Virus record (IMG/VR): IMGVR_UViG_3300042197_000370
Reading direction: 5' to 3' (one strand)
Source of the DNA: a virus
DNA: 64,000 bases
Part shown: positions 13,743 through 29,395 of the stretch, in pieces
How positions within the stretch are numbered: the stretch's first letter is position 1
Layout of the letters: the number at the start of each line of letters is the position of its first letter
Translations under genes and position numbers: made by a program
Notes under the pieces: model-generated
Told to the model about the DNA's origin: nothing
The model's input: only the letters and a program-made list of their open reading frames with translations
The model's database searches: none

Positions 13743-14593
13743 TGAGAGCAACTGAATTTCTTAAGGAGTCTGAAGTTGATGAAATGGCGTTAGCCAAATA
13801 TCAACCAATGGGTGACTTTACTAAGCCAGGACCATTTAGGGGAGTAGATAAGAAATTAGTGCCTCATCCTAAAAATCAGTTGAAGGCAGAAAAGTTCTTT
13901 GAAAAAACTCCATATGATTTTAGATTATTCTTTAGCAATATATCAGGTACAGGTCGCTATAGTGAATATGGTCCTATGGATCCAAAGAACGTAGAAATAA
14001 TATTTGGTGATGCCGCTAAAGATATTATAGATGGACATGATGATGCTATTACTGTAGTATTCGTAGGTAATAAAGGTGATAGCAAAGTTATGTTAACACC
14101 ATGGATGATGGCGCATCGTTTTGGACATGCTATACAAGCAGGAGTGCGCGGTAAGAATCAATGGAGTGCTTGGACAGAAGCCGAAAATCATTTTTTCAAT
14201 GCAGTTAACAATCTATTAAATGAATATTACGGTAAGATCGGTAAGCCAGGTGGTAATTTAAAATGGGAACTTACCCCTGAATACAACGCATTATTCAATG
14301 CTATTGGAACACAGCGTAGTAGCCGTAGTAATGAAATTAGAAGACCTTACGAATTTTTGTATGAACTATTTGCACAGTATTTAGGTACTGGTAATGTCAC
14401 ACTTAAGCCTTTCCCAACTAACTTAAGTTATGGTCGTAAAGTATGGGGAAATCCCACACGTTATATGAATATCAAGCCCGAGTTCCGTGACGAAAACGAA
14501 CGAAAGAATGCTGCCGAAACACTAGCACGTGATATGGAAATGATGTTTGATGACGTACTAAGCAGTAGCGTCGGCAAGATATTCGTTATGTAA
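13742..14593 (+). CDS. Putative internal head protein with capsid-targeting-like N-terminus
   Basis: MRATEFLKESEVDE start; HRFGH zincin-like motif lacking the catalytic Glu. Confidence 0.7.
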   Translation: MRATEFLKESEVDEMALAKYQPMGDFTKPGPFRGVDKKLVPHPKNQLKAEKFFEKTPYDFRLFFSNISGTGRYSEYGPMDPKNVEIIFGDAAKDIIDGHDDAITVVFVGNKGDSKVMLTPWMMAHRFGHAIQAGVRGKNQWSAWTEAENHFFNAVNNLLNEYYGKIGKPGGNLKWELTPEYNALFNAIGTQRSSRSNEIRRPYEFLYELFAQYLGTGNVTLKPFPTNLSYGRKVWGNPTRYMNIKPEFRDENERKNAAETLARDMEMMFDDVLSSSVGKIFVM

Positions 14594-15419
14594 CTTTTAA
14601 TAGTTCTTCAAACGAATACAAATTCTTCATATAGGGCGACACATCTTCTAGTACACTACTAGGCAAATCACCTTCTCGTCTAGGTCCATATGTAATATCA
14701 AACTCAACGTCATTGACCCTACGAAATAAATCTACAATTTCTTTAACACTATAACCTACACCATGTCCTAAGCATTCAACACTATTGCTAGGTTTATCAA
14801 TGGCAGTTACTAATGCTTCACAAATTTCTAATACATGTACATAGTCACGAACACATGTACCATCAACGCTTGCGTCATAGTCATTTCCGTGTATTGTAAA
14901 TGTACCGGTCTGACTAGCCTTCATTAAATTATACATTAATCCATCTGGATTAGTAGGTGGAACTACAGTACTACCAATTACATTATAAAATCTAAAAATT
15001 GTGTAATCTTTTGGATTTACCCCTGTGCAATACTCACGTACAACATCTTCTGCGGCACGTTTACTAATACCATAAGCACTAGCGCATCCTTCTGCGGCAC
15101 CAGTACTTGCAAAAATAAAGTTTTTAGTTTTTACCTTATTGATGACATTCATAGTACCATTAATATTGGTTATGTAATACATGATGGGAGTACGTTGACT
15201 CTCACCTACATTTACCTTAGCAGCCAAATGTATAACAGCATCAAACTCTTCTGCTATTTCAAACTGACGATTTATGTCTACGTTATAGAATCTATGCGCA
15301 GGAACTTGAGGTGGATTTATATCTAGACAATGTACTTCGTAATTCAGTTTATCCATTAACATTTTAACTAAATGCGAACCAATATATCCTGAACTACCGG
15401 TAACTAATATTTTTTTCAT
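14586..15419 (-). CDS. galE: NAD-dependent epimerase / UDP-glucose 4-epimerase
   Basis: ILVTGSSGYIGSH, VIHLAA, YGISK, RDYVHV, RREGD. Confidence 0.88.
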   Translation of the reverse strand: MKKILVTGSSGYIGSHLVKMLMDKLNYEVHCLDINPPQVPAHRFYNVDINRQFEIAEEFDAVIHLAAKVNVGESQRTPIMYYITNINGTMNVINKVKTKNFIFASTGAAEGCASAYGISKRAAEDVVREYCTGVNPKDYTIFRFYNVIGSTVVPPTNPDGLMYNLMKASQTGTFTIHGNDYDASVDGTCVRDYVHVLEICEALVTAIDKPSNSVECLGHGVGYSVKEIVDLFRRVNDVEFDITYGPRREGDLPSSVLEDVSPYMKNLYSFEELLKVT

Positions 15420-16141
15420 ATTTTCCTCACATCATCTTTTTTATATATATTATCCATAATTGTATCCTTCACATCCCATTCTAATTCTGTTAAATCTATG
15501 GCAGTATCTAATGTTTTATTTTTTATTAAGTCGCATATGATATTTGCTAAACGTTTATTGTTTAGTGAGTTAAGATGGCAGTCTCGCAAATCTCCGCCGC
15601 GATCTGTATTAACATTGCCGGTACGTTGATATTTTCCCTTATAAAAAATATGCTCTGCTATAGATACTTGATTTAATTTTAACAATACTGGATAACTTAC
15701 CTTAGGCATATCATAGTCTAATGGGAAACTAAAAATATTTACAAGGTACTTATTATTTTCTTGACAAATTCTATTCACATCTTTAACGATGTTGACACTT
15801 ATATAATTCAATAACTCCTCAGACATTATATCTTTTCTGATTTTATTATAAGGTTCCATTAGCGAATTACCTGTGAATCCTATTTCCCAAGCATAGTGTT
15901 CTAGTCCAAGTGGTGTTACTGGCCAACGCATACTGTTAGTATGACAAAACACAATACAATCGTATTTTTTATAACGTTTGATAAATTGTTCATATGAATA
16001 CCAATGTGATGTACCGCCCCTAGCCCACTGACCTGCTTTACCGTCGCCCATCATTTCATTTAATAATATAGGCCATGGCTTGTTCTCAGTGTAAACACCG
16101 TAATAGGCTGCAAAACTATCACCAAATATACCTATACGCAT
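15416..16141 (-). CDS. SGNH/GDSL-like protein
   Basis: N-terminal IFGDSF, ARGGTS block, C-terminal DCHL. Confidence 0.6.
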   Translation of the reverse strand: MRIGIFGDSFAAYYGVYTENKPWPILLNEMMGDGKAGQWARGGTSHWYSYEQFIKRYKKYDCIVFCHTNSMRWPVTPLGLEHYAWEIGFTGNSLMEPYNKIRKDIMSEELLNYISVNIVKDVNRICQENNKYLVNIFSFPLDYDMPKVSYPVLLKLNQVSIAEHIFYKGKYQRTGNVNTDRGGDLRDCHLNSLNNKRLANIICDLIKNKTLDTAIDLTELEWDVKDTIMDNIYKKDDVRKI

Positions 16142-17479
16142 TTATAGACCTTGAAATAAGCCGTCTGCCTCTGCCGTTTCTTCTGGCTCAAATGATGGAT
16201 CTCTAGTCAACCAAGTATCATCATCAGTATAGATTACACGAAATTTATGTTTGTTGGTTAATACACTGCGAATATCATCTATGCATACGATTTTTCTATT
16301 TAAACTCTGTACATAATCTAGGTATCTCACCGTGCCAAAGTTACAAATTTGTGCAGTATTACTATTGCTTTGTTTGCCTACAAACTTATTAAAGCATTCA
16401 TTCCATTTGTGAAACACTTGGTCTTCTATGGCACGATATTTTTCTAATATTCCATTAGCATACCATGTTTTAGCATCGGGCACATTATTATATAGTTCTG
16501 TTACTTTAGAAGCCATATTCTTTTTATTAACTGTAAAGAAATGATGACTATCAAAATTATTAGTCCAACGTTGATTTTCTAATACTACTGTTGGTAATTG
16601 TATATGCTGTTCATAGAAAGCCATGCCATAACTTTCTACAATGCTAGGATTGAATGCTACTCTTGCGCTTGTGATGAAATCTACTTTCTCTTGTCCTACG
16701 ATGCTAGCACGAACATCGTATGTCGCACCAATCTTCTTTAATCGTTCTTCAAACTTCTTTACACCGTTAGGGCTAGTCATCACTTTAGCAGGAAGTTTTG
16801 TCTGTTCGATCAAATCGATGAATAGTTCAGGATTCTTACCTTCTTCCCAGCGACCAACAAACAACACGCCCTCACGTGGTTTGTGATGCTCTTCCAGTAA
16901 TACACGCTCTGTGATAGGAATAGGAAGATGCCATGCCCCGTTACTCATAGATATTTGATTGAACTTGCTTTGTGTTCCAATCCATAATGCGTTGCATTCA
17001 AGTTGTTTACGCATCATATCATTAGTAGAGTATAAGAATGGATTCTTAGTATCCTTAAATATCTGACTTTCTAAATGTGTATAGGCAATAATTTGAACAA
17101 CATCTTCAAGACCCATGGTACTAGCAACCTGCACACTCTCGTAGGTATTACAGATAAGTGCGTCATAAATGTTATGCTCCATTGCTTCAACAATAGCATT
17201 ACGGAAGTTAGCCATACGTTCATAGCAAAATGTATCACCATACATAAAGATATTGCTATGTAGTGTGTATGGCAATGATTCTAATGGTGCGATGATGTTA
17301 GCCTTCAACGACTTGACAAACTCATTATCTTTAGGTTCTTTGTCACAAATAATATCAACTTTGATATTATGTTCATCCATAAGTTCGCAAAAACTTTTTG
17401 CAAACTGTCCTATGCCACCGTGCGGGATTAATGTTTGGTAACTAACAATAAATCCTATACGTTTGTCATACGTTCTCAC
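16142..17479 (-). CDS. GT-B (GT4-like) glycosyltransferase
   Basis: HGGIGQF, VLFVGRWEEGKNP, NPSIVESYGMAFYE motifs. Confidence 0.8.
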   Translation of the reverse strand: MRTYDKRIGFIVSYQTLIPHGGIGQFAKSFCELMDEHNIKVDIICDKEPKDNEFVKSLKANIIAPLESLPYTLHSNIFMYGDTFCYERMANFRNAIVEAMEHNIYDALICNTYESVQVASTMGLEDVVQIIAYTHLESQIFKDTKNPFLYSTNDMMRKQLECNALWIGTQSKFNQISMSNGAWHLPIPITERVLLEEHHKPREGVLFVGRWEEGKNPELFIDLIEQTKLPAKVMTSPNGVKKFEERLKKIGATYDVRASIVGQEKVDFITSARVAFNPSIVESYGMAFYEQHIQLPTVVLENQRWTNNFDSHHFFTVNKKNMASKVTELYNNVPDAKTWYANGILEKYRAIEDQVFHKWNECFNKFVGKQSNSNTAQICNFGTVRYLDYVQSLNRKIVCIDDIRSVLTNKHKFRVIYTDDDTWLTRDPSFEPEETAEADGLFQGL

Positions 17480-17697: not shown

Positions 17698-17873
17698 CTC
17701 TCTATATCAGTAATGTCTACCTTAATAAAACTAGGATTATATTCTAAAATAACATTTGGACCAATCCCACTTTTACTATCATAATGAAGTTTAACATAGT
17801 CAATTGTGTCATACATTTCAAATGCTTCTTTAATTTTCTCGTATTGATTTCTTGTTATAACTATCGTTGTCAT
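17691..17873 (-). CDS. Hypothetical protein
   Basis: Restarted at MTTIV (TAATG with queE). Confidence 0.65.
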   Translation of the reverse strand: MTTIVITRNQYEKIKEAFEMYDTIDYVKLHYDSKSGIGPNVILEYNPSFIKVDITDIESW

Positions 17874-18736
17874 TATGTGCCCCATTCATTTTTAAATAGT
17901 GGTACTTGAAGTCTATCACTATATCGCCAGCCACGTTGCATTGCGGCAAGTGCTACATTCTTTGCGTTTAGATTATAAACACTATCAACGCCACCAACAG
18001 GCATAATATAAGTATAGCCCCTAAACCCCGCTCTTCTAAACTCTTCTTCGGCTCTTTCTGCATCACGTATATCCTCTTCAGTTGCTACTACAAATTTTAA
18101 ATAGGCAGCACCATATTCTTCGTATTCACGTACAATCTGGGGATGTATAGCATCCTTCCAATCTTCTCCGCTTGCAGGGAGTTTAGCACTAACACTAAAT
18201 GTAATACTGCGAAAAAAATCTTGTGTATGATATCTCATCCACTTTTCTAAGTATCTCGCAAATTCTTTAGTAAGTTTTTGAGTACCATTAGTTTCAAATG
18301 TTATATGCTTTAAATCCTGCATCTTAGGATGCTCTAGTAACGCAGGATAACTTTTTTGCCATCCTAATAATGGCTCACCACCTGTAATGACTAAGTGTTC
18401 GTCCCGCCACTCTTTGTGTGGTAAGAGGTTGACGATTGCCTCTGCAATGCTTTCCGTTGTAAGTACCGGTGAAAGGTGCTTGAACCTAGGATCCCAACTA
18501 GCGTAAGAATCACAACCGGTACTAACAAGTGGAAGATCCCTATACTCTTTAAACCCTCTAGCATTGCTTGCAATAACGTTTCGCTCATTACTCTTTTCTC
18601 CTCGCTTCATTCCAAATCCGTCGCAAGTAAAATTGCAACCAAACGTTCTCAAAAAGACAGAGGGCACACCCATAAATCTGCCCTCTCCCTGTATACTATA
18701 AAATAATTCACTTACTTTTATATGTTCACCTAACAT
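17873..18736 (-). CDS. queE: 7-carboxy-7-deazaguanine synthase (radical SAM)
   Basis: ELFYSIQGEG, FLRTFGCNFTC...CD, VITGGEPLL, FETNGT, RLQVPLF. Confidence 0.92.
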   Translation of the reverse strand: MLGEHIKVSELFYSIQGEGRFMGVPSVFLRTFGCNFTCDGFGMKRGEKSNERNVIASNARGFKEYRDLPLVSTGCDSYASWDPRFKHLSPVLTTESIAEAIVNLLPHKEWRDEHLVITGGEPLLGWQKSYPALLEHPKMQDLKHITFETNGTQKLTKEFARYLEKWMRYHTQDFFRSITFSVSAKLPASGEDWKDAIHPQIVREYEEYGAAYLKFVVATEEDIRDAERAEEEFRRAGFRGYTYIMPVGGVDSVYNLNAKNVALAAMQRGWRYSDRLQVPLFKNEWGT

Positions 18737-18745
18737 AATATCCCT

Positions 18746-18937
18746 TTACCAATGATGTACTACATTTGCAATAATAAAACAACATGTTATCACATGTAGG
18801 AAAATCCAGAAAGTTTTTAGGAACAATGCGATTTTGGCTTCGTTGACTGTGAGAATAGGCACTCTAGGCCTATCCTCGTCTGTCTGTCCCATTAAGTGCC
18901 CGGTGGCCCGAGCCCAAATTTTTTCTAAACTGTTCAT
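18746..18937 (-). CDS. Small membrane protein
   Basis: 63 aa with C-terminal hydrophobic helix, coupled to queD. Confidence 0.7.
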   Translation of the reverse strand: MNSLEKIWARATGHLMGQTDEDRPRVPILTVNEAKIALFLKTFWIFLHVITCCFIIANVVHHW

Positions 18938-19461
18938 GCTTCGTATGTTGCAGAATTAGCATTATGCTCAAATACTTCTACAGAACGTAATTTTACACCT
19001 TGACCAGTTGGATACCTTGCTTCAAATACACGACCATCAGGGTGAGTCCAACTACGACCCTCTTTATATGCTTCAAGTATTTCGTTCATAGTCTTGTAGG
19101 CTAATTCAGCAAACTTTTCGCATCCCACTGCCTTTACTATGCGTAGGTCAATAAGCCCCATATTCTTGAAACCACCCTGCACACGATTTAGTTCTACAAA
19201 CGTTTGACGTTCAGGATCATCTTCAGCAATAATGGTAGTATGATCAAACATCCATTCACTCCATTCTTTAAATGCTTTGAGTCCACCGAAGTCCATGACC
19301 CAATTGCGGTCATCAAGTGTTTCACTTTCAAACACTAATTTGATTCCAATACTATAGCCATGTAGTAACGAACAATGGCTATGGATACTTTTCCACTGTC
19401 TAAAAACACATGAAAGTCCACGGTCGTTGCCGTAAGTTTTTGTTGATAAATATTTTGCCAT
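18934..19461 (-). CDS. queD: 6-carboxy-5,6,7,8-tetrahydropterin synthase (QueD/PTPS T-fold)
   Basis: HCSLLHGYS, WVMDFGGLK, FDHT, EVFE motifs; adjacent to queE. Confidence 0.9.
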   Translation of the reverse strand: MAKYLSTKTYGNDRGLSCVFRQWKSIHSHCSLLHGYSIGIKLVFESETLDDRNWVMDFGGLKAFKEWSEWMFDHTTIIAEDDPERQTFVELNRVQGGFKNMGLIDLRIVKAVGCEKFAELAYKTMNEILEAYKEGRSWTHPDGRVFEARYPTGQGVKLRSVEVFEHNANSATYEA

Positions 19462-19493
19462 CTCTAGTCTCCTTTACTAATGAGCAAGTTTGA

Positions 19494-19534
19494 TGGCGGC
19501 AGAGTTTATTAATCGGGGTGACGCCAAGACCGAT
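19494..19534 (-). ncRNA. Candidate cis-regulatory H-type pseudoknot (preQ1-I-like) in the queD leader
   Basis: AUCGG/CCGAU stem, loop UCUUGGCGUCACC, A-rich tail UAAUAAAC, loop UGGCG complementary to downstream CGCCA. Confidence 0.45.
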
Positions 19535-19535
19535 A

Positions 19536-20222
19536 TCATTTTTCTAAAATAAATCTAATTGTTCCGTTGATATGACCTTGAATAGGAAATTCATATCCTA
19601 GTCTATCAAATGGGCAATCAAATAAAACTAACTTATAAGGTAATTTTACAATCATTTCTTTTGTAAGGTCAACTAAATTTCTTGCAGGTGGTGCTTTTGC
19701 AAGTTTAGACGTTATGTAATGAGATTCTATCATACCCGTACTTAACGTAAATAAAAATCTACCACCCGGCTTAATTATTCGCATAGCCTGAACAATATTA
19801 TTTTCCACTTCGGTTAACTTACCGAAGTGCAAACTGTTTATAGCCATGCCACAATCATACTCTTCTATATGAGCATCTGCAAACTTTTCGGAGAAATCCA
19901 TATGTAAATCTGCATGCTCACCTGATGCATATCCACCCGGTTCAAGTGATGTTATATTAGGAAACCAGCGTTTCCAAAAACATTCTCCCGCACCTACATC
20001 AATAACACTTTTAGGGTTGTTATCGTATAGCCAACTAATGTAATAGAATATCTCTTTAAAGCCTATTTTATATTCATAGTGCCCTCGAGGAGATACTTTA
20101 TTTTGTACAACTTCATCTTTGACGAATAACTCGTAATGTTCTTCAAGTTCCTTTTCTAGGTTAGGGAAATTTCTAATTTCATGATTACGATTATACTCGT
20201 TTATATTAATATTTTCTATCAT
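19536..20222 (-). CDS. Class I SAM-dependent methyltransferase
   Basis: VIDVGAGE motif I and IIKPGGRFLF. Confidence 0.8.
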   Translation of the reverse strand: MIENININEYNRNHEIRNFPNLEKELEEHYELFVKDEVVQNKVSPRGHYEYKIGFKEIFYYISWLYDNNPKSVIDVGAGECFWKRWFPNITSLEPGGYASGEHADLHMDFSEKFADAHIEEYDCGMAINSLHFGKLTEVENNIVQAMRIIKPGGRFLFTLSTGMIESHYITSKLAKAPPARNLVDLTKEMIVKLPYKLVLFDCPFDRLGYEFPIQGHINGTIRFILEK

Positions 20223-20417: not shown

Positions 20418-20891
20418 TCATTGATTTAACTTATTGATAATTTGTGCTTCTGCTACACGCTTTCGCAAACTACTAGAACTAAAACTATGATCACGGCCAT
20501 TGAATACTATCTCAATACCACGATCAATACATTCTTCACGCCCCGTAAAGTCTTTCTCTGCATATTCTACACCTAGTATACGCACATCTACAGGTAGAAT
20601 TAATAGTAAGTCAATCAAGTCTTGTTCAGTTTGATAAACAACAACCTCATCTACAAAACGACATGCGCTAAGTTGAATTTGACGTTCAACGATACTTTGT
20701 ACAGGATGATTCTTTGTATCGGGTCTATCGATAGTAGGATCAGTTTGTAATCCTGCAATCAAATAATCACAATGGTTCTTTGCTTCACTAAGCATAGCAA
20801 TGTGACCTGCATGCAACAAATCAAAGGTACTAAAGGTAATACCAATTTTAAGACCTTGAGCCTTTAATTCTTTAATCTTATTGAATATCAT
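20418..20891 (-). CDS. Cytidylyltransferase (TagD/glycerol-3-phosphate CT-like)
   Basis: FDLLHAGH HIGH motif, RDHSFSSSSLRKR; restarted at MIFNK (ATGA overlap). Confidence 0.88.
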   Translation of the reverse strand: MIFNKIKELKAQGLKIGITFSTFDLLHAGHIAMLSEAKNHCDYLIAGLQTDPTIDRPDTKNHPVQSIVERQIQLSACRFVDEVVVYQTEQDLIDLLLILPVDVRILGVEYAEKDFTGREECIDRGIEIVFNGRDHSFSSSSLRKRVAEAQIINKLNQ

Positions 20892-21124
20892 CTTTGTAAT
20901 GTTTTCCACATGACAGTTTGTTCATGTTCTTTTAAGAACTCCTCTTCTCCTGAAAAGGACCCACTATCTTTAAGAATAGCATCAACAAGCCATTTAATCT
21001 TATACAAGTCTTGTTTGATAGCCCATTGAGTATATCCGTCATTATAAGGACTGTGTAATTCTACACCTGCCATATAGACTTGATGATGAACACTATTATA
21101 ATCCATTGGTTTACGAAATCCCAT
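20888..21124 (-). CDS. Hypothetical protein
   Basis: 78 aa ORF coupled on both sides. Confidence 0.7.
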   Translation of the reverse strand: MGFRKPMDYNSVHHQVYMAGVELHSPYNDGYTQWAIKQDLYKIKWLVDAILKDSGSFSGEEEFLKEHEQTVMWKTLQR

Positions 21125-22644: not shown

Positions 22645-23399
22645 AATTTTTTCCTTATTAAAAACGGTATAATAACTTGTTCAGTATATATCTTGTGTTG
22701 TGCAGATCCAGGATGAGGATCGTTTTCTACTGGAAAGGGTAAGCCTGAATATTTAATAATCCATGATTGACAATCTTCAGCATCTATCCAATTATCAAAA
22801 TCAATTAAATCATATAGATATTTTACATCAGGATGATCGACTACATCAATGTGTTGGTCTGTATTTTTTGGATACCTTGTTTTGATATTTTTATTAAAAA
22901 CATCACTGAAGTACTCTGTCATAAAATACGGGACTCCGTGACTCTTTAAAAACCACTGTACGTTTAATATGTGTTCAATGGTTGATATAACTGATCCTAC
23001 ATGGTCGTAAAAATTATTATAAAAACTACTTGACAATGGATCGTCCCAATGGTCATTTACCAAGTAATAATTTGAATCGCTTACGATTCTAAGAGGATTA
23101 CTATCATTATCTCTATAACCCATTTTATGAAATTTGCCAGGATCACGGTCAAAGTAGTATTCATCTCTATGACACCCGGACCACATAATACCAACTAATA
23201 TATCTTTTGGATTGTAGTTCTTTAATGTTTCTAGTGTGTTAAAAATGGTTTTCTTGCTTATAATTCCATTGCTACCTGCACCATGGCCCAAATATAAAGC
23301 CTCAATACCCATAGCCCTACTTAAATGATAAGGCCATGTTTTGTGACCACTCGGAAATTGTGTGAAACTACATCCAGCAGATATAAGCAATTTTGTCAT
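22614..23399 (-). CDS. SGNH-like protein
   Basis: [17 protein letters not shown]-terminal DPHP motifs. Confidence 0.6.
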
Positions 23400-24424
23400 T
23401 TAGCAAATATATTATTGTATTGTTTATTAACTCGTATAAATGTTGTACACTTACTTAACTGTTTTAAAGTAGATGCACCAACATAACTGCAAGTACTACG
23501 TATTCCACCTAACAAATCTAATACTGTATTGTTTATAGGTCCGCGATACGGAACCTCAACAGTTCTGCCCTCGCTACTACGATAGTTTGCTACCCCACCG
23601 TGATGCTTATTCATTGCAGTATCACTACTCATACCATAGAACGTTACCTTGCCATTTTCAACATGACCGCCACCTTCGTCATGACCGGCTAACATGCCAC
23701 CAAGCATCACGAAGTCAGCACCCGCACCGAAAGCCTTACTAACATCACCAGGACAAGTACATCCACCATCAGCAATAATATGACCGCCAAGACCGTGAGC
23801 GGCATCGGCGCATTCAATAATTGCACTAAGTTGAGGGTACCCCACACCAGTTTGAATGCGAGTAGTACAAACGCTCCCAGGCCCAATCCCCACTTTAACA
23901 ATGTCGGCTCCACGTAAAATTAACTCCTGTGTCATATCTGCGGTAACAACGTTACCTGCAATAATTGTATGCGTAGGATATTTATCACGAACCTTACTTA
24001 CAAAGTCACAAAAATGTTCGCTGTATCCATTAGCAATATCAATACAAATGAAATGAATTTCAGGATATACGTTTAACGTTTGTTGCAGGTTAGTCCAGTC
24101 TTTATCACTAGTTCCTGTACTAACTGCAAAGTAGTTGCCACCAATATCTTCTACAGTGGTATCCATGTATTCCATGTATTCCATACCGATATTTTTAACT
24201 AGGCACGTAAACATTTTATGCCGGTATAATGCATGTGCCATTTCTAGTGTACCAACACCGTCCATGTTAGCAGCCATGATGGGAACACCGGTCCATTCAA
24301 ATCCGCTGTGTTTGAACTTGAATGTTCGTTCTAGGTTTACTTCTTTTCTGCTAGAAATTGTACTGCGCTTAGGGCGAATCAATACGTCACTAAAATCTAA
24401 CTTAACTTCGTTTTCGATTCTCAT
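23396..24424 (-). CDS. guaC: GMP reductase
   Basis: [40 protein letters not shown]. Confidence 0.95.
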
Positions 24425-24426
24425 TT

Positions 24427-25614
24427 TTATTCGTATTTGCTTTCTCTTGTATACTTGCGATAGTCTTTAGACATACGCAACCATTGCTGACCGCGACCTT
24501 CAAGAATATCACAGATTCTATCAATAGTGCCATCAGTCCAATCGCTAATCTTGCCTTGCTTAGGATGAGGTTGAATCAATAACTTATGCAACTTTTCTAA
24601 TGCATCATCCATACTCCATGGCACATACAAACGTTCATAGTCATTAGCAAATGTTTCAGGGAAACTACGATACGCAGGATACAATACATTGCATCCTAAT
24701 GCATCTGCCTCACTTACTGTATTGCTTACCCAGTCTTGTAATGCACAGTTGAACAATACACGTGTATCGTTAAGCAACAGATAATAGATAGTCTTATCTA
24801 AATCTTCATAAACTTTTAGTTTACCTTCTTCACGCATTTTATTAGTGCGTTGCATATAACTGCTATTGTTACTGCGTAGTTTACTACCGCTAAACACAGC
24901 AAATTCTACGTTGTTCCCATAACGATTGTGCCACTCATCGATCAAGTCCAAATAGAAGTCAGGTTGCTTTTCTTGATCCCAACGTGCGGCAAAGCCTACA
25001 CGCATATGACGTTCTTCAAATGGCTTGAGATTTTGGCCTGCATCTAATACTCTGCGTCTTACTTCTTCCTTACCGAATGCAAGACCACTGATATTATAGA
25101 TAGGGGCAGTCCAGCCTGCAACTCGCATATGCATAACCATTTCTTCATTGCTGGCTAACACACCATCTACGAATTCGTTAACCATCTTTTCATATTTCTG
25201 CATCCATTTCGACATGCCCCATACATGTACGAAATCATCAGGATCAATGGATTGAGCAAGACAACGGACAAAAATGCGAGGACGGTGAGCATCATCGACT
25301 TGATCAAGAATATAAGGTAGGCTCTCGATACCGGGCTGAAACATGTCCTCAAAGTAGATAACATCTTCATTTGTTACTAATCCTTCTTTCATCATTTTAA
25401 CAAGATTCATCAATTGACTCATGCCGTAATATGTACGACCATGCGCATCCAGTACTTGACCAGTTACAATCTGCTGATCACTAGATAGTGTTTCACCTGG
25501 GACAACAACGTACTTAATACTGCGCCGGTCAAAAACTGTTGTGTTCCAATCTGTTAATTGTAGTGTGTATCGTGCCTTGTATGGCTCCAAACCCATATAA
25601 AATAATTTTTTCAT
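24427..25614 (-). CDS. GT-B glycosyltransferase, possibly DNA-modifying
   Basis: [32 protein letters not shown] two-Rossmann pattern. Confidence 0.75.
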
Positions 25615-27165: not shown

Positions 27166-27763
27166 TATGCAACCCATACCACATTTGATGAATTTCGTTT
27201 GCGTAGTCATACAAATCTTCTAACTCAAAAAAATTTATTATTTTATAATAAAGCGATTTGTCTAATTTTGGAGTATACAGTGTTTTTCCTTCTACTATTA
27301 ATAATTCTTCATTTGGATTACATACAAAATCTGTTATACCTTTATTCTCATCTTCACAACGTTTAATGAAATCTTTAGGTGTAAACGTGTTTAGGGTAGG
27401 ATTAAATCTAACGTAGTGTTTTAAACAGTCTATTGGATCTAGTACTGAAGCCAATATTTTATGAGGACCAACTATATTTTTTGTTGCTACTTCCATCTTA
27501 TGAGATATTGTGATAATATGATCTAATTGACCACGATATCTCCATTCATACGCAATCCAATTAGAATGTGTCCGCTCTTTAGAGTACACATTTTCTTCTA
27601 TAAATTTTACTTTATCTTTACTATTCCATGGGAATGCTCTTTTGAATCCCATAAAACTATTTGCATTTAATAAACCTAAACTATTGTACTTTTGCGAAAG
27701 TAGTATTAACCAACGATAATGATTAGCAAAACCCCCTACTGGAGCACATATACTATGACGCAT
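27158..27763 (-). CDS. Tandem paralog 1 (HSxCA..GxFxNHxRWL family)
   Basis: Restarted at MRHSICAPVGG; shorter C-terminus. Confidence 0.78.
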   Translation of the reverse strand: MRHSICAPVGGFANHYRWLILLSQKYNSLGLLNANSFMGFKRAFPWNSKDKVKFIEENVYSKERTHSNWIAYEWRYRGQLDHIITISHKMEVATKNIVGPHKILASVLDPIDCLKHYVRFNPTLNTFTPKDFIKRCEDENKGITDFVCNPNEELLIVEGKTLYTPKLDKSLYYKIINFFELEDLYDYANEIHQMWYGLHNA

Positions 27764-28532
27764 TTTTTCTAATAATATCTTCTTCGATACAATTAATACC
27801 GTATTGAATTTCAATGACTTTCAAAGGTTCGTCAGTATCATTACATAACTGATGCCATTGATCTTTTGAAATGTGAAGATATTTATGTTCATCAAATTGA
27901 CCTAACTCATCAAATTCAGTTTTGACAGGATCGATAGTATTGACGGTTGCAGTACCGTGAGAAACAAACCAAAACTCACTACGCTCATTATGTTTTTGCA
28001 TACTTAGTTTTTGTCCAGGATTAACAGTTAATTCTTTAACTTTAACACTAGGACCATCTTGGTGAAGAACCCTATAATATCCCCAGTCACGTATAGTTTT
28101 AGGTGACTTCCATTCTTCTAATATCCAACTTGAACTGTTAGCCTTGTCTCCCCCACCTACACCAAACTTAAACGTTATATCCTTAACTACTGTTTCGGGA
28201 ATGTTCGTGACATTTCTATCGCCGCCGTTTGCAAATATAATATTTGCATAGGGGTAACTAATTTTTAATTCTTCTAATAATGATATTGCACTACCATCAC
28301 TATCGTCAAACGTTAATGTAGCATCTACATCTTTCAATGATCCCACTATCATTCTGCGTTCTTCAATGGGCATAAAGGCTCTACCTTTTTTACGGGTAAG
28401 CCATTCATCGCTATTAACGCCTACAATTAAACGATCACCTAATTGCCGTGCGGCGCTCAAATATTTTATGTGTCCACTATGTATTGGGTCAAAACCACCA
28501 GTACATACTACTATGTTTATTTGTTTTTCCAT
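27753..28532 (-). CDS. Cytidylyltransferase fused to a cupin (mannose-6-phosphate isomerase type II C-terminal-like)
   Basis: TGGFDPIHSGH HIGH motif, FANGGDR, then WGYYRVL...LSMQKH...RSEFW cupin; start MEKQ after an AGGA SD. Confidence 0.85.
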   Translation of the reverse strand: MEKQINIVVCTGGFDPIHSGHIKYLSAARQLGDRLIVGVNSDEWLTRKKGRAFMPIEERRMIVGSLKDVDATLTFDDSDGSAISLLEELKISYPYANIIFANGGDRNVTNIPETVVKDITFKFGVGGGDKANSSSWILEEWKSPKTIRDWGYYRVLHQDGPSVKVKELTVNPGQKLSMQKHNERSEFWFVSHGTATVNTIDPVKTEFDELGQFDEHKYLHISKDQWHQLCNDTDEPLKVIEIQYGINCIEEDIIRKNAS

Positions 28533-28711
28533 TAATTCCTTAATCCAACATAAAATAAAAAAAGTGCAAGTACTGCGAATATTGCATATGTCAACCAAGC
28601 GGGTGCGGGAGGCTTCTTAAGATGCGGGCACCTGCCTTGTTGAAAATCGCAATAGTACGGAAGCAACTCATCATTCATTTGCTTCCCGCAGTACTTGCAC
28701 CTCTCACTCAT
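28532..28711 (-). CDS. Small Cys-rich membrane-anchored protein (59 aa), not in ORF track
   Basis: MSERCKYCGKQMNDELLPYYCDFQQGRCPHL...AWLTYAIFAVLALFLFYVGLRN; ATGA and TAATG coupling. Confidence 0.7.
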   Translation of the reverse strand: MSERCKYCGKQMNDELLPYYCDFQQGRCPHLKKPPAPAWLTYAIFAVLALFLFYVGLRN

Positions 28712-28930: not shown

Positions 28931-29395
28931 TTAGATGGCTAGTGATTGATATGGTTTATGTGTATCGTATTGTGTCGTAGCACCGTTTTCTCCGTCTTCG
29001 GATACTGTGATTTCAATATCACGATTGGGATATCTCAGTGCTATTTGTAAGTATAGATCATCGCTGATCATTTCGCAACTCTTATGGTTCAATTCAAGTG
29101 TGCCTTCACTGTAAAGTTTTTCCAACCAACGTTTGAACTGAATGAATTCAATATCACGGTCGTCATGAAATACTTGAATGGCTACATTGAAATGAAAGAT
29201 GTGTCGATGTGGATACCCCAAAAAACTAACATCATATTCATCGTTAGTTGCTAGTTTAGGATCAGATGTTGCCGCTGGATATCGGTGTATACCTTCTTTT
29301 CGAAAGGTCACCCATATCATTTTTTTCGCATTCTTCATAATTCTACTTGTTTTCTCTACCAGAGCCTGTTCACGTTGTTGCATAATACCCCTCAT
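28931..29395 (-). CDS. dpdL: T-fold protein with LxxxHRHxF motif (DpdL-like, putative CDG decarboxylase)
   Basis: FLGYPHRHIFHF, DRDIEFIQFK, SCEMI, VSEDGENG; lies in the folE/queD/queE/TGT cluster. Confidence 0.65.
   Translation of the reverse strand: MRGIMQQREQALVEKTSRIMKNAKKMIWVTFRKEGIHRYPAATSDPKLATNDEYDVSFLGYPHRHIFHFNVAIQVFHDDRDIEFIQFKRWLEKLYSEGTLELNHKSCEMISDDLYLQIALRYPNRDIEITVSEDGENGATTQYDTHKPYQSLAI

Follow-up and report, generated by a model that had tools for sequence, protein, structure and literature searches.

Class I preQ1 (preQ1-I) riboswitches are the closest described systems to the RNA element considered here. They fold into an H-type pseudoknot in which a G-C pair forms the floor closing P1 and L3 is A-rich (PMC11625349). 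A strictly conserved specificity C precedes the 3' strand of P1, and further ligand contacts are provided by U6 in L1 and A30 in L3 (PMC11625349). The type I members are further marked by UC before P1, by UU on top of this helix and by a C in the tail that is conserved (PMC11625349). All the preQ1 riboswitches covered by that review are OFF switches (PMC11625349).

The element analysed here is carried by a stretch of viral DNA of 64,000 nucleotides (IMG/VR record IMGVR_UViG_3300042197_000370), referred to below as the window. An initial annotation, made from the letters alone, had proposed a preQ1-I-like pseudoknot in the leader of a queD gene. The RNA that it quoted is found exactly on the minus strand, at 19461-19536, and the pseudoknot proves to be real, conserved and phage-borne, as well as non-canonical. 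In this study, we describe the locus, the fold and the family to which the element belongs, and discuss how it may control the downstream gene.

The queD locus

In the ORF listing of the window, the genes around the queD leader are all on the minus strand. The parts of the locus are as follows.

17873-18736: QueE-like radical-SAM gene, downstream of queD after a 63-aa ORF (Pfam/PHROG scans)
18934-19461 (-): QueD/PTPS-family gene, 175 aa (PF01242, E 2.4e-13; phrog_2389, E 3.4e-34)
19459-19461 (-): queD start codon, inside the 3' arm of the sequestering helix described below
19462-19535 (-): gap of 74 bases between the 228-aa ORF and the QueD-family gene
19536-20222 (-): upstream ORF, 228 aa, no Pfam family; its TGA stop (19538-19536) lies one base before P1
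21449-22129: FolE, upstream of the queD leader (Pfam/PHROG scans)

The gap had been singled out as the only sizeable one in the operon, and indeed no other gap this large occurs between ORFs of at least 40 aa from about 14.6 to 22.1 kb. A promoter scan near the leader returned 17 promoter-like sites where 17.1 were expected from shuffles; many homologous leaders carry a TTGACA-17-TATAAT promoter that ends a few bases 5' of P1. In the window, P1 adjoins the upstream gene and no clear promoter is seen, so that the element probably lies within a polycistronic mRNA.

The QueD-like protein encoded at 18934-19461 (-) reads CSLLHGY, that is CxxxHGY, where canonical QueD has CxxxHGH. CxxxHGY is also found in its homologues (L001-L407), the second subfamily having CNLIHGY. 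One zinc-binding histidine is thus substituted, and the chemistry of the enzyme may therefore differ from that of QueD.

Sugar genes stand among the deazaguanine genes at 14586-17479, 20418-20909, 24427-25614 and 27753-28598 (-), the types at these four loci being epimerase/dehydratase, glycosyltransferase-like, cytidylyltransferase-like and mannose-6-phosphate-isomerase/cupin. Comparable sugar-nucleotide genes lie beside the motif in other phages too, and their interleaving may point to a sugar-bearing hypermodified base. The modification cluster also contains an IMPDH/GMP-reductase-family gene (23396-24424 (-); PF00478, E 1.7e-71), which may have a role in guanine-nucleotide recycling.

Architecture of the aptamer

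Within the gap, the RNA can be assigned part by part as an H-type pseudoknot.

19492-19534 (-): whole aptamer, H-type pseudoknot of 43 nt; 43.6 bits with R1, 35.0 bits with R2 (E about 1e-6)
19530-19534 (-): P1 5' strand, AUCGG, pairing with 19512-19516
19517-19529 (-): loop UCUUGGCGUCACC, between the P1 strands
19527-19529 (-): L1, UCU; the family pattern is N-C-U plus 0-5 nt more
19519-19526 (-): P2 5' strand, UGGCG, then U (of a U.C mismatch), then CA (covariation, four-combination test)
P2 pairs: U19526-A19494, G19525-C19495, G19524-C19496, C19523-G19497, G19522-C19498, C19520-G19500, A19519-U19501
19517-19518 (-): L2, a variable base plus the specificity C19517; in 89 distinct protein-anchored aptamers this position is always C
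19512-19516 (-): P1 3' strand, CCGAU, pairing with AUCGG (covariation)
19504-19511 (-): UAAUAAAC, the A-rich part of L3
19502-19511 (-): L3, UAAUAAAC plus UC, 10 nt, with A at positions 3, 5 and 7
19494-19503 (-): UCUGCCGCCA, the 3' segment after the A-rich part
19494-19501 (-): P2 3' strand, UGC plus CGCCA (four-combination test, covariation)
19469-19475 (-): Shine-Dalgarno sequence AAAGGAG, starting 18 nt past A19494

R2 is a covariance model built exclusively from leaders of another QueD subfamily (YKYTS, see below), with the window excluded. Elsewhere in the window it gave no match above 7.3 bits, compared with 35.0 bits at 19492-19534 (-). A match of this strength by a model derived from a different subfamily indicates that the element is more than a chance occurrence.

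A family of uncultured phage leaders

Altogether, 172 instances of the motif, comprising 119 distinct aptamers, were collected from uncultured phage contigs, and a QueD/PTPS-family gene follows in about 170 of them. The downstream QueD genes belong to two main subfamilies, MAKYLSTKTYG... (the type of the window) and ...YKYTSTKEYHDAFPC... (the YKYTS subfamily), and to two rarer PTPS-like forms. At loci of QueD relatives in IMG/VR (80 of 269, with 75-87% identity), the element lies just upstream in all but five, and a scan with a degenerate pattern added 116 further loci, nearly all of them true instances. A set anchored on the YKYTS protein, and hence independent of any pattern (80 loci from at least 594 relatives), contains the motif at 74 of its 80 loci; five of the six loci lacking a match are incomplete on the 5' side. 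A single copy is present in every one of five large phage records, of which four are at least 97% complete. Conservation upstream of homologous queD genes, on which the initial annotation had staked its proposal, is thus borne out across hundreds of uncultured phages.

An exact-sequence scan of viral contigs for the stem-loop of the window found no match. In bacterial and archaeal genome contigs, the 120 listed matches to the degenerate pattern were all chance-like, with neither N-C-U nor P2, and R2 had no match in a sample of 156 bacterial genomes; neither result weighs heavily against an occurrence in bacteria. The sole blastn match among cultured phages spans 57 nt and falls inside queD of Flavobacterium phages. 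In a sample of ten cultured-phage queD loci, which includes those of Acidovorax ACP17, Flavobacterium immuto, Stenotrophomonas Marzo, Xanthomonas PhiXhv-15 and X1, and Sinorhizobium Phosso, queD has neither a leader gap nor the motif, for which scores stay at or below 11 bits. No model among cultured phages came out of these searches. The motif did not turn up in full-text searches of the literature.

Some individual loci depart from the usual arrangement. In one relative (L067:2498-2998), the motif precedes a canonical PTPS of 141 aa (CSHLHGH) that is followed by a QueD-like gene, so that two T-fold genes share one leader. Elsewhere the motif lies upstream of genes for non-QueD proteins of 113 aa (L186:6412-6827) and 240 aa (L194:4620-5410); the latter protein has no homology to the 228-aa ORF upstream of the leader in the window. 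An upstream ORF starting from an AUG that is present within many P2 3' strands was considered and dropped; the window has no such AUG.

Covariation and conserved bases

Covariation was assessed in two alignments. The first, A1, holds the 119 aptamers, which were selected for 5/5 pairing in P1, with P2 playing no part in the selection. The second, A3, is an unbiased set of 89 distinct protein-anchored aptamers; pattern scans fix several of the 'invariant' bases, a bias from which A3 and A2 are free. Over P1 and P2 together, 85.7% of the cells in A1 are paired, against 66.3% after shuffling, and the covariation score is 0.473 compared with 0.144 for shuffled alignments; none of 500 shuffles reaches the observed value and slid controls give 0.04-0.10. 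The paired fraction in A3 is 89.7% and the score 0.355, against 0.115 when shuffled, again with 0 of 500 shuffles reaching it and slid controls at 0.03-0.08. Both helices therefore covary across phage queD leaders, which is the check that the initial annotation had proposed.

These results bear on whether the structure is a hairpin that arose by chance or one that terminates or attenuates transcription, a reading that is hardly tenable. The leader has a minimum-free-energy z-score of just -0.17, which would suit a fortuitous fold; this value comes from nested folding, which cannot represent a pseudoknot. Hundreds of covarying homologues refute such an origin. In addition, no U-tract follows either helix and, although five terminator-like sites were counted near the leader (2.3 in shuffles, sd 1.6), none falls in the gap.

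In the 89 distinct homologues, P1 is 99.8% paired. Its third pair is CG in 66, AU in 14 and UA in 9, whereas the top two pairs are G-C in all 89. The first base of L1 varies, its C is nearly invariant and its U is invariant. The A-rich part of L3 measures 8 nt in 88 of the 89 aptamers; the third of its A's is invariant, and the first two positions hold A in 90% or more. It had been noted that the loop begins with U and ends with C, like the ligand-contacting loop ends of preQ1-I. The final C does hold up, being invariant in the 89 homologues, but the initial position may be U, A or C.

This pattern of conservation can be set against the idea of a leader operated by a protein or independent of any ligand, that is an operator for a phage protein (e.g. 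the QueD-like enzyme) or a constitutive fold setting the level of translation, which we regard as rather unlikely. The element keeps to a single protein family, and there is a precedent in phage leader pseudoknots bound by their own gene product, such as the pseudoknot in the gene 32 mRNA leader of phage T4. However, the conserved unpaired bases coincide with places of the preQ1-I pocket, namely the C before the P1 3' strand, the G-C floor and the A-rich L3. Moreover, out of 45 nt about 20 are invariant or nearly so, and a pseudoknot is present as well. A profile of this kind has been linked to biochemically sophisticated RNAs, among them riboswitches and ribozymes (Weinberg et al. 2017).

Extension of P2 through the supposed long L3

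Two registers had been offered for the second helix, UGGCG with CGCCA or GGCG with UGCC, together with a longer L3. The family supports the first register. The second finds no support because the UGC engages UCA of the loop, as shown by compensatory changes. Three variants in A3 exchange UCA for UCG and, at the same time, UCUGC for UCCGC. When the four combinations were scanned for, UCA..UCUGC gave 98 true instances in 116 matches (85 distinct aptamers) and UCG..UCCGC gave 69 in 120 (49 distinct aptamers), whereas the mismatched UCA..UCCGC gave one true instance in 117 and the mismatched UCG..UCUGC at most one in 71, which is chance-like. A further combination, UUA..UCUAC, occurs in one lineage. 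These counts imply that the A of UCA pairs with the middle U of UCUGC and that the preceding C pairs with the G. A pairing of UCUGC with the P1 5' strand had also been considered and was rejected, UCUGC being fixed while P1 varies.

Judged from these sequence patterns, P2 runs through a conserved U.C mismatch into what appeared to be L2 and the long L3. The true L2 then usually consists of 2 nt, a variable base and the invariant C, with three in a few relatives. The claim of a longer L3 is accordingly not upheld as it stood: a portion of it belongs to the extended P2, and what is left is an A-rich L3 of 10 nt.

On a FastTree phylogeny of the downstream QueD proteins, the A-U or G-C state changes 18 times, compared with 45 times for shuffled labels, and the G-C form is found with three different platform designs. 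The G-C form thus arose, or moved, several times.

Expression platform and predicted logic

The minimum-free-energy fold of the leader contains a structure that competes with the pseudoknot.

19492-19497 (-): sequestering helix, 5' arm GCCAUC (MFE fold), overlapping the P2 3' strand
19457-19462 (-): sequestering helix, 3' arm GAUGGC (MFE fold), holding the start codon
19482-19484 and 19469-19471 (-): inner hairpin, CUC and GAG respectively, in which part of the Shine-Dalgarno sequence is paired

In platform MFE folds, the P2 3' strand pairs with the Shine-Dalgarno/AUG window in 122 of 134 distinct leaders, and the designs by which it does so differ. Leaders of the window's type use GYCAUC..GAUGGC. 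Others use CCAUUGUU..AACAAUGG or AAGUCAUC..GAUGACUU, in which bases after the AUG covary with P2, and a further design is CCUAUG..CAUAGG(AG). In the G-C subtype, ACACUCC faces GGAGU, and the P2 5' strand GGUGU mimics a Shine-Dalgarno sequence. In each of these independent designs, the P2 3' strand can thus pair with the start codon or with the Shine-Dalgarno sequence.

The effect of the knot was modelled by imposing P1 and withholding both P2 strands from other pairing. Over positions -13 to +3, the modelled unpaired probability rises from 0.44 to 0.59 with the knot (control, 0.47), and the accessibility of the ribosome-binding site of the window itself from 0.36 to 0.55. The predicted gain is modest, and it was computed with nested-fold thermodynamics, in which the knot itself has no representation. 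Part of the inner hairpin of the window (CUC:GAG) could persist once P2 has formed.

As the P2 3' strand acts as an anti-start or anti-Shine-Dalgarno strand, knotting should free the ribosome site, giving ON rather than OFF control. This speaks against the proposal that the element feedback-represses queD and queE, since formation of the knot should activate translation. A preQ1-I variant of canonical logic, in which preQ1, preQ0 or CDG would fold the knot and bring about end-product repression of queD-queE, is in our view distinctly improbable. Its architecture resembles preQ1-I, the known preQ1 riboswitches are all OFF switches (PMC11625349), and in some relatives no more than about 8 nt separate the end of the knot from the Shine-Dalgarno sequence, so that a folded knot could hinder the 30S subunit. 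In the window, however, the knot ends 18 nt before that sequence. The P2 3' strand does not contain the Shine-Dalgarno sequence but is complementary to it or to the start codon in the 122 leaders mentioned above, so that knotting releases the ribosome-binding site, and QueC was not found among the main ORFs of the window or, beyond weak partial matches far from queD, in the related near-complete genomes.

We consider that the element is probably a cis-acting translational ON riboswitch in a phage queD-like leader. A guanine-like small ligand, be it a 7-deazapurine, guanine itself or a pterin intermediate, would bind between P1 and P2 by pairing with the invariant C, and would stabilize the knot. 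The knot would in turn withdraw the anti-start strand from the hairpin formed by GCCAUC:GAUGGC and CUC:GAG, and the start codon and Shine-Dalgarno sequence, once freed, would allow QueD to be translated. The knot and the sequestering helix are mutually exclusive, and it is from this that we infer that a ligand stabilizing the knot should switch translation on. Several points count against the ON riboswitch, among them the modest gain in accessibility and the possible persistence of the inner hairpin. Ligand-activated control is an unusual logic for a biosynthetic gene, and, to judge by the bases at these positions, the contacts equivalent to U6 and A30 are missing.

Candidate ligands and the modification pathway

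Clues to the ligand come from the genes around the motif and from one further gene of the window.

28931-29395 (-): DpdL-like T-fold gene, 154 aa, with LGYPHRHIF

LxxxHRHxF is the proposed signature of the CDG decarboxylase DpdL (PMC10516641). Pfam and PHROG scans of the window, covering its 20 main ORFs from 14.6 to 32 kb, did not detect QueC. In a set of 20 large contigs that carry the motif, of which four are at least 97% complete, the only QueC matches were weak and partial and lay far from queD, and the Pfam TGT model gave none on the same contigs. The conserved neighbourhood of the motif comprises FolE upstream and a QueE-like gene downstream, as well as sugar-nucleotide enzymes, glycosyltransferases, HIT and PRTase; a QueC cluster is absent from the 20 commonest gene clusters near the motif.

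Given the DpdL-like gene and the lack of QueC among the main ORFs of the window, the product made by the phage is probably 7-deazaguanine or one of its derivatives, and not preQ0. With no QueC found in the window or the related phage genomes, preQ0 and preQ1 made by the phage are unlikely ligands, and 7-deazaguanine, CDG, guanine and pterin intermediates are the candidates.

A more far-reaching reading, to which we would give somewhat less than an even chance, is that of a phage-exclusive riboswitch class that has a preQ1-I-like fold, responds to a ligand other than preQ1 and activates the first committed enzyme of a queC-less 7-deazaguanine DNA modification. Candidate ligands would then be 7-deazaguanine, CDG, guanine that DNA transglycosylation sets free, or a precursor of pterins, e.g. 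H2NTP. If this is true, the preQ1 riboswitches would have their first natural relative of the ON type.

If the element does bind a ligand, it would represent an abundant riboswitch of viruses rather than of cells, with a logic opposite to that of every known preQ1 riboswitch, and would control DNA hypermodification, an anti-restriction trait. The identity of the ligand would reveal which intermediate phages monitor while rebuilding their guanines. The aptamer is very small, at 43 nt, and the refined fold, with its extended P2, U.C mismatch and 2-nt L2, provides a defined construct for binding and structural work.

Comparison with known riboswitches

Rfam 15 gave no match in the whole window at gathering thresholds. 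At E<=10, sub-windows of 401 nt and 76 nt yielded no preQ1 model and just two chance snoRNA matches. The Infernal search with Rfam preQ1 models that had been suggested at the outset thus returned no RF00522 match in the window, where the gathering score of 39 is not reached, and membership of preQ1-I is not upheld. On five related jumbo-phage records, no RF00522 match overlaps the motif (below about 9 bits there); the scores listed elsewhere in these records are 8.8-17 bits, and controls from Bacillus and Mesobacillus score 39-51 bits. Conversely, R1 and R2 did not detect canonical preQ1-I examples.

The phage motif shares with preQ1-I a 5-bp P1 closed by a conserved G-C (89 of 89 aptamers), a specificity C directly 5' of the P1 3' strand (C19517 in the window), an A-rich L3 directly 3' of P1 and an association with 7-deazaguanine biosynthesis genes. 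It differs in the position equivalent to U6, which is U, A or C, in that equivalent to A30, where Y-U-C precedes the P2 3' strand, and in the P2 3' strand, which in place of Shine-Dalgarno bases or a terminator feed carries an anti-start or anti-Shine-Dalgarno sequence. Features of riboswitches in general are present, namely a conserved leader aptamer, an alternative platform pairing and a consistent gene association. Because the U6 and A30 equivalents are missing, P2 is longer and devoid of the Shine-Dalgarno sequence, RF00522 does not detect the motif, and R1 and R2 miss canonical examples, the motif is treated here as a new variant with a preQ1-I-like fold and not as a member of the family.

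Among the known types, type I (RF00522, e.g. Carnobacterium antarcticum) has the same H-type pseudoknot with a 5-bp P1, G-C closure and A-rich L3; as in type I, the specificity C of the phage motif is usually preceded by U, and the 3' tail has a conserved C. Unlike type I, the phage motif has N-C-U and not UU in L1, an L2 of 2-3 nt and a P2 of 7-10 positions with a conserved U.C mismatch, where type I has 3-4 bp. Its P2 lacks the Shine-Dalgarno sequence, its predicted logic is ON, and in the searches made it was found in uncultured phages only. Types II and III (B. subtilis queC, T. tengcongensis, E. coli) share the fold class and the position of the specificity C. In these types, a canonical pair forms the ceiling of the pocket, and in the phage motif A-U or G-C does so. 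The base before the specificity C, a fixed A in types II and III, is U, C or A in the phages. UC takes the place of the A30 equivalent, the canonical tails being AUAAAAAACUA (L326, L327).

In its proposed mechanism, the phage motif may be likened to the add adenine riboswitch of Vibrio vulnificus, a translational ON switch in which ligand-stabilized folding of the aptamer frees the ribosome-binding site from a sequestering strand. The add riboswitch has a different fold, a three-way junction, and a different gene context; the likeness would be one of switching logic.
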